The notes beneath the pieces are model-generated. The model saw only the letters and a program-made list of their open reading frames with translations, did no database searches and was not told the origin of the DNA. From the sequence record ON568341.1: a DNA stretch of 64,000 nucleotides. One strand, 5' to 3'. Position 1 is the first letter of the stretch; each line of letters starts with the position of its first letter. The position numbers and the translations under genes are program-made. Positions 31,644 to 45,990 of the stretch are shown one piece after another. Source of the stretch: Escherichia phage UE-S1.

Positions 31644-31649
31644 TTTTAA

Positions 31650-31678
31650 AGCTCGTCTATTGACGGGCTTTTCTTTTG
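31650..31678 (+). terminator. intrinsic terminator
   Basis: AGCTCGTC / GACGGGCT stem (one G-U) then T-rich run. Confidence 0.6.
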
Positions 31679-31711
31679 TGTGTATAATACAAAGAAATAT
31701 AGGAGGAAATT

Positions 31712-32278
31712 ATGGTCAAATCATTACTACCACCACCAAAACGACATAAAATCAAAGAAATGAAAGAACAACGCACATTAAAGATGTACAACAACTTAGT
31801 TAAGTTACTTTGCAAAAGCCCATCACTCAAAGAAGTATTCACAACAGATGATGATCGTAATGCACTTATTGAGATGAAATATATGCTCAGTAAAATGTCC
31901 TTTTACAAATTTGTCAAAGAATACTCAACTGAACCATTCAGTCCTCGTTGGCGAGTCAAACCAAGAGAGTATTTTTTCGGTGGTTCATATACTGATATCA
32001 TTCAAGATACGGTGATAGGCGTAGAGTTCGAGATTGATTATGAGCCTAATGGTGTGGAAAACTGGCAGATTGACAAACATTTACCAAGTGAAGATGAAAT
32101 TTATGTTTATGCAAGAAAACAGACAACCTTCAGTTCAAGAATTGCTCTTAATAATTTAGATTCATTTATTATTTTCTATACACGTGTAGGTGTAGATAAA
32201 ATGGTAACTAAACTCAATGAATTATCATTACAACAAAAACAGATTAATGCATACAAAGACATTACAGATTTATACTAA
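31712..32278 (+). CDS. hypothetical protein, tandem paralogue 1 of 3
   Basis: Shares S.LK....T.DDR..L.E.KY.LSK N-terminal pattern with the next two ORFs. Confidence 0.5.
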   Translation: MVKSLLPPPKRHKIKEMKEQRTLKMYNNLVKLLCKSPSLKEVFTTDDDRNALIEMKYMLSKMSFYKFVKEYSTEPFSPRWRVKPREYFFGGSYTDIIQDTVIGVEFEIDYEPNGVENWQIDKHLPSEDEIYVYARKQTTFSSRIALNNLDSFIIFYTRVGVDKMVTKLNELSLQQKQINAYKDITDLY

Positions 32279-33314: not shown

Positions 33315-33716
33315 ATGACTACAGTTGATGATATCTATAGTACTATACGAAATATGAGTACAGATAGAAAAGTATTTGGTGATAAAGAAAAATCTAAGTG
33401 TTATGGTATTGATTCTTTTGATATAATTTCGTATGAGTACAACACGAATGGAAATAGTTCACTGAATATCGTCTGCCCTCGTGACCCAGAAAATAATTTT
33501 ATGTATGTTGAAATTAATAATGATGGGATGTTTTTTACAAAAGTTTTCAAAGGTGGTATTAATTACGAACCTATTGAATGTATGAATGAAGAAACTTTCT
33601 TTCAAGAAGATACAATTATCAATTTAGGTTTTAGTTTTGCGGATTATAAAACATTAGAACATGACTTTAATCGTTATTATAACGGTTTCTTAAAGGAGTT
33701 AACAATTTATCTATGA
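33315..33716 (+). CDS. hypothetical protein
   Basis: ORF in array. Confidence 0.45.
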   Translation: MTTVDDIYSTIRNMSTDRKVFGDKEKSKCYGIDSFDIISYEYNTNGNSSLNIVCPRDPENNFMYVEINNDGMFFTKVFKGGINYEPIECMNEETFFQEDTIINLGFSFADYKTLEHDFNRYYNGFLKELTIYL

Positions 33717-34945
33717 ATAACCAATATGTTGAACAAACAATAGTGAAACACTTGGCTGGGTCACAAGCCTACGGAACCAGTACGCCTGAAAGTGATACTG
33801 ATTATCGTGGTATTTTTCTTGCTAATAAAGAATTTATTCTTACGCCATTCTATAAGGTTAAAGAAGTAGCTGATAAAAATGAAGAAGATACCAAATTCTA
33901 TGAGTTAAATCAGTATTTAAAATTATACACTGAAGCCAACCCTAATATTCTGGAATCACTATGGGTTGAACCAGAACACATTGTAGAAAGTACTGAGATT
34001 TATGACTATCTTCGTTCATTTAACCAAAAACTTCTTAGTTCTAAGATTGCATTTTCATATACTGGATATGCATATAATCAGATTAAGCGTATGACAAATC
34101 ATCACGGTTGGATGGATAAAGAGCGAATTGCTGAAAAACGTTTAAATGAGATTTTAGAAGAACACCCTGTCGATGAGGTTCTTGCGTGGATGTATGATTC
34201 ATTCCCACAATATCTTGTTGAACGTTTAGATACATCTAACTTACATCCATTTAATACTAAAAAGATTGATTTTGAAAAATATATGCGTGATACGTCATTG
34301 CAGTTAGTTTCGAAAAATCCATTAAAGCAATATCATTTTGTAAGATTAGTGCATAACTACACTACTGACAAAATTCTAGATCGTGATTTCAATTTATTGA
34401 ATTTTAATAATGGCTATGAACTAATTCATTACGGAGAAAACATTTTTGCGATTATTAAAAATCCAAATGAAAGCACTATCAACGGTGATGGATCATTGCG
34501 TTATTTTTCTAAAGAGCGTAGTACTGAAGAATTGAAAACTAAACCAGAACTAATTGTCAAATTTAACGAAAAAGAATATCAGGAAAATAGTGAGAATAGA
34601 AAAAGTTATCATAAATGGAAAGAAAATCGTAATGCCAAACGTGCTATTTTAGAATCACAACACGGATACGATTGTAAACATGCTATGCACACAATCCGAC
34701 TTTTGAATAGTGCAGAAGAAGCATTACAAAGTGGAATTATTCAAGTTAAACGACCAGATGCACAAATGTTGATGGATATTCGTAATGGTAAATGGAAGTA
34801 TGAAGAAGTCTTAGAATATTTCGATGATAAAGTACAATACATTCGTGATGTTCTATATAAGAAATCAGTACTTCCCAAAAAACCTAACATCAAGTTAGCA
34901 TCGAAAATTATAATTGATATTCGAGAAATGCAATGGTATAAGTAA
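33713..34945 (+). CDS. pol-beta-superfamily nucleotidyltransferase
   Basis: N-terminal GSQAYGTSTPESDTDYRG matches the NTase-fold signature G[SG]..(9-13)..D.D; 410 aa with uncharacterised C-terminal region. Confidence 0.55.
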   Translation: MNNQYVEQTIVKHLAGSQAYGTSTPESDTDYRGIFLANKEFILTPFYKVKEVADKNEEDTKFYELNQYLKLYTEANPNILESLWVEPEHIVESTEIYDYLRSFNQKLLSSKIAFSYTGYAYNQIKRMTNHHGWMDKERIAEKRLNEILEEHPVDEVLAWMYDSFPQYLVERLDTSNLHPFNTKKIDFEKYMRDTSLQLVSKNPLKQYHFVRLVHNYTTDKILDRDFNLLNFNNGYELIHYGENIFAIIKNPNESTINGDGSLRYFSKERSTEELKTKPELIVKFNEKEYQENSENRKSYHKWKENRNAKRAILESQHGYDCKHAMHTIRLLNSAEEALQSGIIQVKRPDAQMLMDIRNGKWKYEEVLEYFDDKVQYIRDVLYKKSVLPKKPNIKLASKIIIDIREMQWYK

Positions 34946-35007
34946 TATATGGGTGTAATAGTTATAAAAATTCCATTACACACCAAATCACTTCAGTGAT
35001 TTATAAC

Positions 35008-35035
35008 TTGACATTGAAAAATAATTATGTATAAT
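35008..35035 (+). promoter_or_regulatory. sigma70-like promoter
   Basis: TTGACA - 16 nt - TATAAT; -10 abuts the terminator hairpin. Confidence 0.5.
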
Positions 35036-35037
35036 TA

Positions 35038-35065
35038 GAGAACTTCATATGGAGTTCTCTTTTTT
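35038..35065 (+). terminator. intrinsic terminator
   Basis: GAGAACT / AGTTCTC stem then T6. Confidence 0.6.
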
Positions 35066-35079
35066 ATAAGGGTGATAAA

Positions 35080-35481
35080 ATGTTAAATGAACGTATTAAA
35101 AATGCACTATATGTATTGAACCAAGAAGTTAATTCTATTCATAAAAGTACTGAGCGATATAAAGTATTACATGAAATTAGACAAGAATTGGAATCCATTA
35201 ATAAGGGAAAATGGGTTCTTGAACGCGAACGAACTATTGTTGAAAAAGCAATTGCAAAATTCATCTCGGAACGTTATGGTAAAATTTCAGAGGAAGATGT
35301 ACTAATGAACTTACATCTTTCACAAACGGAAGTGATGGAGAAATTTCATTTTGATTCATTAGACTGGTTAGAAATGATCATGGAATTGGAAGAAGAATTC
35401 AATGTAGAAGTAGATTTATATTATGAAAAACAAGAAACCAAACTATATGAACTAGCAGAACACATTAAACTAATGATGTAA
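35080..35481 (+). CDS. acyl-carrier-protein-like protein
   Basis: C-terminal FDSLDWLEMIMELEEEFNVEVD matches the ACP phosphopantetheine-attachment region (DSLD..E..M.LEEEF); ~55-aa N-terminal extension. Confidence 0.55.
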   Translation: MLNERIKNALYVLNQEVNSIHKSTERYKVLHEIRQELESINKGKWVLERERTIVEKAIAKFISERYGKISEEDVLMNLHLSQTEVMEKFHFDSLDWLEMIMELEEEFNVEVDLYYEKQETKLYELAEHIKLMM

Positions 35482-35534: not shown

Positions 35535-35909
35535 ATGAGTATACTAGAAATAATAGTTTCAAACATTCTTATTCCATATTGGAAACCAATTTCTTTTGCA
35601 TTATTAATTAGTGGTTCAGCAATTGCGGGTTGGAAAGCTAATACTTATTATACTGGTTATCAAGAAAGTATAGAGCAACAAATAGCCAAAAAAGTTGATA
35701 TAGCACTTGATAAAATGCAACAAGAAAATACAAAAAGCTATCTTGAAACAAAAAAAATTATGGAAGATAATACAAAAGTCATTGAAACAAAGGTTCCTTA
35801 TATAGTAGAACGTGAAGTTTATAAAAATGTTTGTTTAGATGAAGATGGTGTGAAAGTACTGAATGAACTTAAACAAAATTCTAAAGCGGCAAGGAATAAA
35901 TTCAAATGA
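35535..35909 (+). CDS. i-spanin-like protein
   Basis: N-terminal TM helix (ISFALLISGSAIAGW) then charged coiled-coil-like region; overlaps next gene by ATGA. Confidence 0.5.
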   Translation: MSILEIIVSNILIPYWKPISFALLISGSAIAGWKANTYYTGYQESIEQQIAKKVDIALDKMQQENTKSYLETKKIMEDNTKVIETKVPYIVEREVYKNVCLDEDGVKVLNELKQNSKAARNKFK

Positions 35910-36214
35910 AAAAAATGTTAGTACCGTTTATTTCTTTTTTAATTATAAGTGGATGTGCAGAACAAGTAAAAGTACAATCCCCTGCACCAATTAAACAAGA
36001 AATTCTGTTAGAAAGATGTGATGATGACACACCACTACCACAAAAAATTATGATTGACCAAAACGGATTTAAAGGGTATAGTGGGAGTGAAATTCTCAAA
36101 GTTCTTACCCGTTGGGATGCAATCTATAACGAATGTGCATTGAAACATGATGCATTGATCAAAACCATTCGTGATTTACAAGGTAAAGATATTAAAATAA
36201 ATATCAAGGATTAA
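35906..36214 (+). CDS. o-spanin-like lipoprotein
   Basis: Lipobox-like FLIISGC at N-terminus; position immediately after TM/coiled-coil gene. Confidence 0.5.
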   Translation: MKKMLVPFISFLIISGCAEQVKVQSPAPIKQEILLERCDDDTPLPQKIMIDQNGFKGYSGSEILKVLTRWDAIYNECALKHDALIKTIRDLQGKDIKINIKD

Positions 36215-36215
36215 A

Positions 36216-36827
36216 ATGAACAAATATCATGTTTATTATACAACAAAGTTATCCCTTCTTGATGAATTAAATCACCGAAGTACTAAGATGAAACGTTATA
36301 CTTTAAATGGTATTACTTTTCGATATTTCCCACAAAAAGTCCTTACTTTTGTCAAGAATCCAAAATGCGTGGCATGTGGGATTGAAGCCACTGAAGTACG
36401 CATTGAACGTACATTTAGTTCTGATCCAGTTTATGGTAAACCACATTTAAATGTATATGCGGTATGTGGTCTTTATGAAGTGTTGATGACAGTTGATCAC
36501 AACCATCTGGCATCGAAGGGTGGTTGTGATTTAGAGTCAAACTTTAATACTATGTGCTCCAAATGCAATCAACTACGTTCTAATAAAACCGAAACAGTTG
36601 ATGAGTTTCTTGAGAAAGTTAAAGATCGTAATCTTCTCCAAGAACATATGAATAAATTCTTTAACGTACAAAAAAAGAAAAATAACATTGACAAGTCGAA
36701 ACTACTAGAAGAACGTAGGTTACGTCAAGAATTATGGGAAACAGACCATCTATGGCATGTTCGAGAATTTGGTCGTCATATGAAAGCTTTGAAAAAAGAA
36801 CAGAAGAAATTGAATAAACATGATTGA
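36216..36827 (+). CDS. HNH endonuclease
   Basis: VDHNHLASKGGCDLESNFNTMCSKCNQLRSN (HNH core with CxxC); CxxC also upstream (CVAC); strong terminator follows. Confidence 0.7.
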   Translation: MNKYHVYYTTKLSLLDELNHRSTKMKRYTLNGITFRYFPQKVLTFVKNPKCVACGIEATEVRIERTFSSDPVYGKPHLNVYAVCGLYEVLMTVDHNHLASKGGCDLESNFNTMCSKCNQLRSNKTETVDEFLEKVKDRNLLQEHMNKFFNVQKKKNNIDKSKLLEERRLRQELWETDHLWHVREFGRHMKALKKEQKKLNKHD

Positions 36828-36840
36828 TATGATATTATAG

Positions 36841-36868
36841 GGACTTGAGTATTCAAGTCCTTTTTTTT
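36841..36868 (+). terminator. intrinsic terminator
   Basis: GGACTTGA / TCAAGTCC stem then T8. Confidence 0.8.
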
Positions 36869-38785: not shown

Positions 38786-39226
38786 ATGGAAAATATTGAA
38801 AATTTAAGACATGTTATGGATTTTATCATTGATACTGAAGAAGATAATGCTTATGATGAAATCTTACTAACTTTTATTGAAAATAGTTTGTTTTTAAGTT
38901 CTGCTGCACATAGCTGGCATTTACAAAGCCGTTTCTACACAAAGCATCTTCAATTGGATGAACTATACAAAGAGTTACCAGAGTACGTTGATGCATTTGT
39001 TGAGGGTATAATGAATACTCGTGGGGCATTACAGGTAGGTACTGGTAACAGTTATCGATTTACCCACATTGAGGATTGTGTTCCAATTCTTGAAGAGTAT
39101 TCTAGCCAATGTAAAGCAATTCATGCTATGCTCGAAGAGGCAGAAGACTATGGCAGTACTAACACACTAGAAGATATTATGAGTTTTGTTGATGGTGTGC
39201 TTTACAAACTTAAAGTTTTACAATAA
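38786..39226 (+). CDS. hypothetical protein
   Basis: AAGGAGAG RBS; terminator follows. Confidence 0.5.
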   Translation: MENIENLRHVMDFIIDTEEDNAYDEILLTFIENSLFLSSAAHSWHLQSRFYTKHLQLDELYKELPEYVDAFVEGIMNTRGALQVGTGNSYRFTHIEDCVPILEEYSSQCKAIHAMLEEAEDYGSTNTLEDIMSFVDGVLYKLKVLQ

Positions 39227-39233
39227 ACTATAT

Positions 39234-39262
39234 GGAGAGTCATAGTGACTCTCCTTTTCTTT
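39234..39262 (+). terminator. intrinsic terminator
   Basis: GGAGAGTCA / TGACTCTCC stem then T-rich run. Confidence 0.8.
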
Positions 39263-45617: not shown

Positions 45618-45950
45618 ATGCTAAATCTAAATATTCAAGGCAACGTTGATATCACTCCAGCAATCCAAGATGCTATTTATAATGAAGCAAAAAGTCTGGA
45701 TAAGTACCGTACTTCTTCAGTACTAGACATTGGTGTTCATGTTAAGAAAGAGCATAAAACTCAATATGCTGTAACTTTAACTGCTGGTAGTAAATCAGTA
45801 ACTGCTGATGATGCTGATTTGTATAAAGCAATTGTTGAATCTTTTGATAAGATGGAAACTGTATTCAGTAAAGACAAAAGCATTAAATTACACCGCCGAA
45901 ACCATCCAGAACACCCCGTTCTTGATGATTTGACAGAAAACGAAGAGTAA
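45618..45950 (+). CDS. hypothetical protein
   Basis: AAGGAAGG RBS; terminator follows. Confidence 0.5.
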   Translation: MLNLNIQGNVDITPAIQDAIYNEAKSLDKYRTSSVLDIGVHVKKEHKTQYAVTLTAGSKSVTADDADLYKAIVESFDKMETVFSKDKSIKLHRRNHPEHPVLDDLTENEE

Positions 45951-45961
45951 GATAGACTAAA

Positions 45962-45990
45962 GGGACAGATTAATTCTGTCCCTTTTCTTA
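45962..45990 (+). terminator. intrinsic terminator
   Basis: GGGACAGA / TCTGTCCC stem then T-rich run. Confidence 0.8.

Follow-up and report, generated by a model that had tools for sequence, protein, structure and literature searches.

A compact element at positions 35008–35065 of the analysed DNA (a stretch of 64,000 nt, hereafter the window) probably acts as a composite promoter–terminator, a reading to which we assign a probability of roughly 70%. On the basis of its sequence, it would stop transcripts arriving from upstream and initiate new ones inside the 5′ arm of the terminator hairpin, which would escape termination. Megablast comparison places the window in Asteriusvirus, the 121Q/PBECO4-like jumbo coliphages with genomes of ~350 kb; the nearest record is phage ph0011, and other matches include 121Q, PBECO4 and slurp01. 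Genes in the window lie nearly all on the + strand, and the genome has 33% G+C, corresponding to a mean A+T content of 67%. Upstream of the element lies a gene for a 410-aa RlaP-family nucleotidyltransferase (33713–34945, + strand, from the ORF list; Pfam RlaP, E = 2.9e-16), which is annotated as a nucleotidyltransferase in the ph0011 and 121Q records and is the last gene of a five-gene operon that would feed the terminator. Downstream, the ORF list places a gene for a 133-aa carrier-domain (acyl-carrier-like) protein (35080–35481, + strand). Its product matches Pfam PP-binding, the phosphopantetheine-attachment (carrier) domain, at cutoff, and the annotations of ph0011, phAPEC6 and Sharanji call it a carrier or acyl carrier protein. 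This gene is preceded by a Shine-Dalgarno-like AAGGGTGA (35068–35075, + strand), located 4 nt before the ATG at 35080 and reading AAGGTGA in relatives.

The promoter part of the element was identified by a consensus scan and consists of a −35 hexamer TTGACA (35008–35013) and a −10 hexamer TATAAT (35030–35035), both on the + strand and separated by a 16-nt spacer (35014–35029) containing an A-run of variable length among relatives. A sequence-only reading of this DNA had proposed precisely this arrangement, and it is present in the sequence at 35008–35035. The two hexamers match the consensus at 12/12 positions, and the spacer falls within the 16–18 nt range of sigma-70 (RpoD) promoters. The chance expectation for such sites was estimated from 300 first-order Markov simulations of the 64-kb window. 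Sites with 12/12 matches were expected 0.09 times per strand in 64 kb, and two were observed on the coding strand (11400 and 35008) and none on the other. For sites with at least 11/12 matches, the expectation was 3.5 ± 1.9, against 15 observed on the + strand and 1 on the − strand; four of the 15 + strand sites (5104, 31660, 35008 and 44528) are intergenic. This strand bias argues that the coding strand carries a real population of host-type promoters.

A single base, T35036, separates TATAAT from the hairpin AGAGAACTTC-ATAT-GGAGTTCTCT (35037–35060, + strand), which was detected by terminator scanning and folding and comprises 10 pairs, four of them G–C and one G·U, closed by a 4-nt loop. It is followed directly by the T-run TTTTT (35061–35065, + strand), the prospective U-tract, with 5 T in the window and 6–8 T in relatives. 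With a folding energy of −12.5 kcal/mol (z = −4.9), it is more stable than any of 200 shuffled sequences; the energy is that of the hairpin. The segment thus has the anatomy of an intrinsic (Rho-independent) terminator, namely a stable G–C-containing stem-loop with a U-tract directly 3′. Independently, this hairpin is listed in the GenBank record of phage G17 as a terminator predicted by ARNOLD. The sequence-only reading had placed the terminator stem at 35038–35065, with a 3-nt gap after the −10 hexamer. The predicted terminator is indeed present there, but that span covers the stem together with the T-run, and the gap has to be corrected to 1 nt up to the first pair (A35037–T35060), or 2 nt up to the first G–C pair. 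An Rfam search returned no known RNA family, the sole match, to RsaF, scoring 20 bits where the gathering score is 60.

In sigma-70 promoters, the +1 usually lies seven nucleotides past the last −10 base. With the last T of the −10 hexamer at 35035, this geometry places the +1 at 35042 ± 1, so that the predicted start is A35041, A35042 or C35043 (35041–35043, + strand), within the 5′ arm; A35041 and A35042 are purines. An RNA beginning there can form only a 5-bp stem, ACUUC/GGAGU, with one G·U pair and a folding energy of −2.6 kcal/mol (z = −1.6). Such a stem is equalled by 16 of 200 shuffled sequences and is set 4 nt (UCUC) away from the U-run. Intrinsic termination demands a stable stem that abuts the U-tract; since the truncated stem is both weak and detached, transcripts from this promoter are expected to read through. 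On window coordinates, sigma-70 geometry therefore agrees with the earlier proposal of a start inside the 5′ arm. The companion proposals, that the promoter's own transcripts read through while upstream transcripts terminate, are supported, in prediction, by the weak, detached stem of the former and by the complete −12.5 kcal/mol terminator that the latter would carry. The suggestion of an insulator-like arrangement likewise agrees with the context in 121Q and JNE01, in which the promoter is squeezed between a coding end and its terminator.

Following this model, the hairpin and U-run (35037–35065) would stop polymerases arriving from the five-gene nucleotidyltransferase operon, which probably start at the promoter at 31660–31688; in 121Q-type relatives, the incoming polymerases would instead come from the tail-fibre genes gp507–509. 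The consensus sigma-70 promoter (35008–35035), placed between the upstream stop codon and the hairpin, would start new transcripts at about A35041/A35042. Lacking AGAGA, the base of the stem, these RNAs would form only the 5-bp stem and then read on through the carrier-protein gene, the first gene served by the promoter, and the spanin-like and HNH genes. Two jobs would thereby be done within 58 bp, providing transcriptional insulation of the neighbouring units at almost zero intergenic cost. Transcripts from the promoter itself could still be attenuated to some degree by a residual 5–6-bp hairpin with UCUCUUUUUU behind it. Furthermore, with the promoter placed ahead of the terminator, polymerases arriving from upstream have to pass over it before they can stop, and this order leads one to expect occlusion, or collision with a promoter-bound polymerase. 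The element gives its promoter no protection from occlusion, and a promoter-bound polymerase may in turn block incoming polymerases ahead of the hairpin. Later in infection, phage modification of the host polymerase may silence sigma-70 promoters. Literature searches for 5′-end, 3′-end or transcript mapping in Asteriusvirus found none.

Comparison among relatives indicates which parts of the element are maintained. An alignment of seven phages shows no variation in the −35 hexamer or in the stem base GAGAAC/GTTCTC, and every one of them has a T-run of 5 or more. The −10 hexamer is TATAAT in 5/7, TATAGT in ph0011 and TATAAA or TAAACT in A4. Spacer length is 16 nt in the window and JNE01, 17 nt in 121Q, slurp01 and G17, 18 nt in ph0011 and 15 or 17 nt in A4, and the spacer sequence is unrelated in A4 and JNE01. 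The A-run within the spacer differs in length among the window, 121Q/slurp01/G17 and ph0011 (spacers of 16, 17 and 18 nt, respectively), and homopolymer slippage there may tune promoter strength; the ph0011 version is weakened by its 18-nt spacer combined with TATAGT.

In 121Q, the element separates gp509, a tail-fibre gene, from the carrier-protein homologue gp510: the TAA that stops gp509 ends 1 nt before TTGACA, followed by a 17-nt spacer, TATAAT, one base, an identical hairpin and T8, after which come the Shine-Dalgarno sequence and ATG of gp510. The −35 hexamer of JNE01 and Turkey5 contains the TGA stop codon of the upstream gene (tTGAca), TTGACA-16-TATAAT is kept around a spacer of unrelated sequence in both, and the hairpin GAGAACTTCA-ATA-TGAGGTTCTC directly abuts TATAAT and is followed by AT7; the element persists in these phages even though their carrier protein shares only 37% identity with that of the window. 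A4 retains TTGACA with the hairpin AGAGAACTTC-ATGA-GAGGTTCTCT. Promoter and hairpin are thus conserved together across lineages with about 70% nucleotide identity or less. The stem also changes in an informative manner. Replacement of GGAG in the window by GAGG in A4 preserves pairing through an exchange of U–A and U·G pairs. For three hairpin variants, the + strand RNA folds at −12.9, −14.0 and −13.5 kcal/mol, against −9.4, −11.2 and −9.3 kcal/mol for the complement; the + strand form is therefore stabler by 2.8–4.2 kcal/mol in all three, owing to the G·U pairs. As judged from these sequences, the substitution pattern is the one expected if selection acts on the hairpin as a + strand transcript, not on a DNA palindrome.

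These observations bear on several other explanations. The hexamers might form a promoter that is silent or negligible in infected cells, leaving only a terminator; possible causes are occlusion by transcription reading in, the 16-nt spacer or a phage-modified host polymerase, and the downstream genes would then be expressed by read-through of the terminator or from another type of promoter. Tolerance of TATAGT with an 18-nt spacer in ph0011, and of TATAAA or TAAACT in A4, is in line with this explanation. So is the report of additional promoter classes in Rak2-like phages, including a T4-late-like ATAAATA (PMC5259590), a motif that TATAATTA in the window and TATAAACT in A4 resemble. Against it stand the invariance of TTGACA in seven phages, in sequence that is non-coding or overlaps a stop codon and lies beside a scrambled spacer, the low expectation of a 12/12 match (0.09 per strand) and the 15-fold enrichment of near-consensus sites on the coding strand over the other, and we regard a silent promoter as unlikely. 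About as unlikely is an active promoter followed by a promoter-proximal attenuator, at which a substantial share of the promoter's own transcripts would stop ~20–24 nt after the start, with the residual ACUUC/GGAGU hairpin and the U-rich tract tuning downstream expression. An RNA from 35042 can still form the 5-bp stem, and UCUCUUUUUU behind it would make a weak RNA–DNA hybrid; the stem nevertheless reaches only −2.6 kcal/mol, a value equalled in 16/200 shuffles, contains a G·U pair and stands 4 nt from the U-run, where terminator rules call for a stable abutting stem.

The inverted repeat, which extends from −5 to +19, could instead be read at the DNA level, as an operator bound by a dimeric phage or host regulator that shuts the promoter off, its terminator-like appearance being secondary or a second function. 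Repressor operators typically cover the start site, as this repeat does, and a terminator palindrome is able to double as a LexA site (bioRxiv 10.64898/2026.08.19.745784). As DNA, however, the repeat is imperfect (one T·G pair), and its variants keep RNA pairing through U–A/U·G swaps without a fixed half-site in the upper stem. In addition, the + strand RNA is consistently stabler than its complement, a conserved T-run follows the repeat, and no second copy of the repeat was present in the 257 kb searched, which together make an operator a very improbable explanation. Least probable of all, we consider, is a chance juxtaposition of AT-rich hexamers with a real but functionally unrelated terminator. 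The genome has only 33% G+C, and weak 9/12 hexamers do precede the terminators at 36810, 39201 and 45930, but coincidence accounts poorly for a perfect 12/12 match in non-coding sequence and for its co-conservation with the hairpin across lineages at about 70% nucleotide identity or less. The composite promoter–terminator accordingly remains the preferred reading.

The occurrence of the element across lineages connects it with a neighbouring tail-fibre module. The gene order in 121Q is 506-507-508-509-510, of which gp507–509 constitute the tail-fibre module (121Q L004 36372–39790). The element is present in 4/4 lineages that have an upstream tail gene (121Q/G17, A4, JNE01 and Turkey5). Neither promoter nor hairpin was found in fEgEco12 and CMSTMSU, in which the carrier gene follows directly on the nucleotidyltransferase gene with no tail genes between, or in Klebsiella phage RaK2, in which the carrier homologue overlaps the upstream ORF. 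This pattern of presence and absence implies that the element is tied to the tail-fibre module, at its 3′ end, and not to the carrier gene. Scans of IMG/VR with proteins and with a DNA pattern returned only the 121Q genome itself. The spacing of the genes in the module-free lineages is tight: the carrier gene begins 10 nt after the RlaP-type nucleotidyltransferase gene in fEgEco12 (L007 380–403) and CMSTMSU, and in RaK2 the overlap with the upstream ORF is 4 nt (L016 601–604). Such linkage hints that the carrier protein and the product of the gene before it may be functionally paired.

In the window phage, only a remnant of the module is left. Similarity to the window is lost at 34981 in 19 of 23 megablast records, because those relatives carry gp507–509 at this position, whereas the module is absent from the locus in the window phage, ph0011, slurp01, ECO103 4-12-1 and EC22.5-2. 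The element hence sits exactly at the edge of a presence/absence polymorphism of gp507–509. What remains in the window is the 3′ end of a homologue of 121Q gp509 (34980–35006, + strand), eight codons encoding TPNHFSDL with the stop codon TAA at 35004–35006. Immediately before the element, 121Q reads ...aaaCACACCAAATCgtttccgtgatttaTAAc-TTGACA and the window ccattaCACACCAAATCacttcagtgatttaTAAc-TTGACA, and the slurp01 junction reads ...ctGGCACACCAAATC. In slurp01, the third codon of gp507 is joined to the gp509 tail via CACA(A/C)CAAAT; in the window and ph0011, the junction lies at CAC, slightly to the left of that in slurp01. The deletion junctions thus coincide with microhomologies of 3–4 nt (CACA and CAC) and contain no second cassette, which speaks against cassette-mediated deletion of the tail-fibre genes, and the promoter–terminator is intact at both. 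Two differing microhomology junctions suggest separate or stepwise deletions. In this phage, the gp507–509 module appears to have been removed by microhomology deletion with the element kept, and among the relatives either insertion or loss may be involved.

A motif caaTATAAATTaac located upstream of gp507 in 121Q (L002 4296–4308) resembles the T4-type late promoter TATAAATA. It is kept in slurp01 (L003 2802–2814) despite the loss of the tail-fibre genes that it presumably served, and is absent from the window. Tentatively, and with less than even odds, the element may be regarded as an integral part, at the 3′ end, of a tail-fibre (host-range) module that is portable, a self-insulating insertion cassette. 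The module would then consist, in order, of a late-type promoter, gp507–509, a stop codon, a sigma-70 promoter and a terminator. If this is true, the module could insert between two co-transcribed genes and have no harmful polar effect. Its late transcripts would end at the terminator, and the downstream genes that the insertion cuts off would be expressed again from the nested promoter. Subsequent loss of the module would leave the element behind as a scar, as in this phage.

Several features of the flanking genes were recorded alongside. The gene order 3′ of the carrier gene is a spanin-like pair and then an HNH endonuclease gene. The first ORF of the pair (35535–35909) has an N-terminal membrane segment, and the second (35906–36214), which overlaps it by 4 nt, has a lipobox (LIISGC) and a weak Rz1-like LysC match; by these sequence features, the two look like an i-spanin/o-spanin pair between the carrier-protein and HNH genes. 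Within the carrier-protein gene, the segment 35213–35512 (the C-terminal two thirds) shares 72–77% identity with slurp01, while its flanks share 90–100%, and the protein is 67% identical to 121Q gp510. Either local mosaicism or fast evolution of a segment within one small gene would account for this divergence. A recombination breakpoint at the element was rejected, given that identity to slurp01 is 89–93% through the element and drops only in that segment. A separate hairpin without a T-run lies directly 3′ of the nucleotidyltransferase stop codon (34950–34985, + strand; −8.9 kcal/mol, z = −2.2). Its arms read GTGTAATGG/CCATTACAC in 121Q and GTATAATGG/CCATTATAC in slurp01, a compensatory G–C to A–T change suggestive of selection for the RNA structure. 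Although no canonical terminator, this hairpin may serve as a 3′-end stability or processing structure.

The number of copies of the element, and of comparable arrangements, was surveyed in the 64-kb window together with an assembled 193.5 kb of 121Q, 257 kb in all. A blastn-short search with the 97-nt element recovered itself in the window and one orthologous copy in 121Q, so that membership in a repeated cassette family was rejected; two further 16-nt matches in 121Q lie inside coding sequence and were attributed to chance. A general design rule of the genome was also discarded: when distances from the ends of promoter-like −10 hexamers to the starts of terminator hairpins were measured in 121Q, 1 of 56 + strand terminators in the 193.5 kb, that of the element, began 0–5 nt after a promoter with at least 10/12 matches. 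A strong promoter in this arrangement thus occurs a single time across the 64 kb and the 193 kb. The 9/12 look-alikes in 121Q, which have window counterparts at 36810 and 39201, fall in the 3′ ends of coding sequences, and the window site at 45930 matches at 10/12. Window hairpins at 36810–36862, 39201–39254 and 45930–45985 are directly preceded by weak promoter-like hexamers (9–10/12), which lie within the 3′ ends of upstream coding sequences and, as far as their sequences indicate, may be either active internal promoters or merely AT-rich coding ends. A different geometry occurs at 31648–31688, upstream of an ORF at 31712. Here, the hairpin AAAGCTCGTCTATTGACGGGCTTT (−14.0 kcal/mol) contains a −35 hexamer TTGACG in its 3′ half, with a T-tract in the spacer and TATAAT at 31683–31688. 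This layout, with the hairpin over the −35 and the T-tract in the spacer, occurs four times in the 193.5 kb of 121Q.

Overlapping promoters and terminators are a kind of phage regulatory cassette already known, and the PeSL (promoter-early stem-loop) cassettes of T4-type phages precede the present element (PMC2839356; PMC4122927). In reporter assays, PeSLs proved to be strong promoters and efficient terminators (PMC2839356). They number ~50 per genome and share ~100 bp of similarity, which drives recombination and mini-circle formation (PMC2839356; PMC4122927). The element resembles them in its intergenic position and in the order of its parts, i.e. stop codon, near-consensus sigma-70 promoter, stem-loop terminator, Shine-Dalgarno sequence and ATG, and its geometry equals that of the PeSL subclass whose stem-loop follows the −10 (PMC2839356). 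Furthermore, its host is a large T4-related myovirus, both kinds of element have been proposed as insulators of adjacent transcription units, and both lie near insertions and deletions. There are differences as well. The element is single-copy in 64 kb + 193 kb. PeSLs have an AT-rich tract upstream of the −35, whereas the 19 nt preceding the −35 here (cacttcagtgatttataac) have ~68% A+T by count, matching the genome mean, and correspond in 121Q to the coding end of gp509. Finally, the deletions beside the element proceeded via 3–4-nt microhomology, and the slurp01-divergent patch is inside the carrier gene. By analogy, the element is considered PeSL-like in function without being a PeSL, because it lacks the repeat family and the AT-rich upstream tract and bears no sign of cassette recombination.

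A second point of reference is provided by promoter-coupled terminators in bacteria, in which the terminator and promoter of tandem units share a few tens of base pairs, termination precedes the start by ~10 bp and by no more than 35 bp, and the hairpin lies over or upstream of the −35 with the T-tract just before the −10 (bioRxiv 10.64898/2026.08.19.745784). The element has the compact overlap in common with them, and polymerase interference is expected in both. Its order is reversed, however, with the predicted start ~20–24 nt upstream of the termination site, and with hairpin and T-run downstream of the −10 it falls outside their definition. The arrangement at 31648–31688 is a true example of that geometry. 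Phage morons, inserted genes with their own promoter and terminator (PMC2839356), offer a further parallel: in 121Q-type phages, the gp507–509 module stands between genes that are adjacent in other lineages and has signals of its own, a late-like TATAAATT motif at its 5′ side and the promoter–terminator at its 3′ side. Unlike in a moron, the genes served by the 3′-edge promoter are those already resident downstream and not those of the insertion. In addition, for the Rak2-like relative CBB, RpoD-like, TGAAACG-type and late ATAAATA-type promoters as well as 74 terminators have been predicted (PMC5259590).

Altogether, the element opens no long-standing question and is unlikely to surprise specialists in phage transcription. 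As a compact insulator part, it may be of interest to synthetic biologists. If confirmed, it would represent a clean natural case in which 58 bp terminate one transcription unit and initiate the following one within the hairpin of the terminator, in a geometry that reverses the terminator-then-promoter coupling recently reported to be widespread in bacteria. Confirmation would likewise aid the annotation of operons in poorly annotated jumbo phage genomes, and would carry the PeSL concept beyond T4-type phages, to the jumbo phages of Asteriusvirus with their 350-kb genomes.
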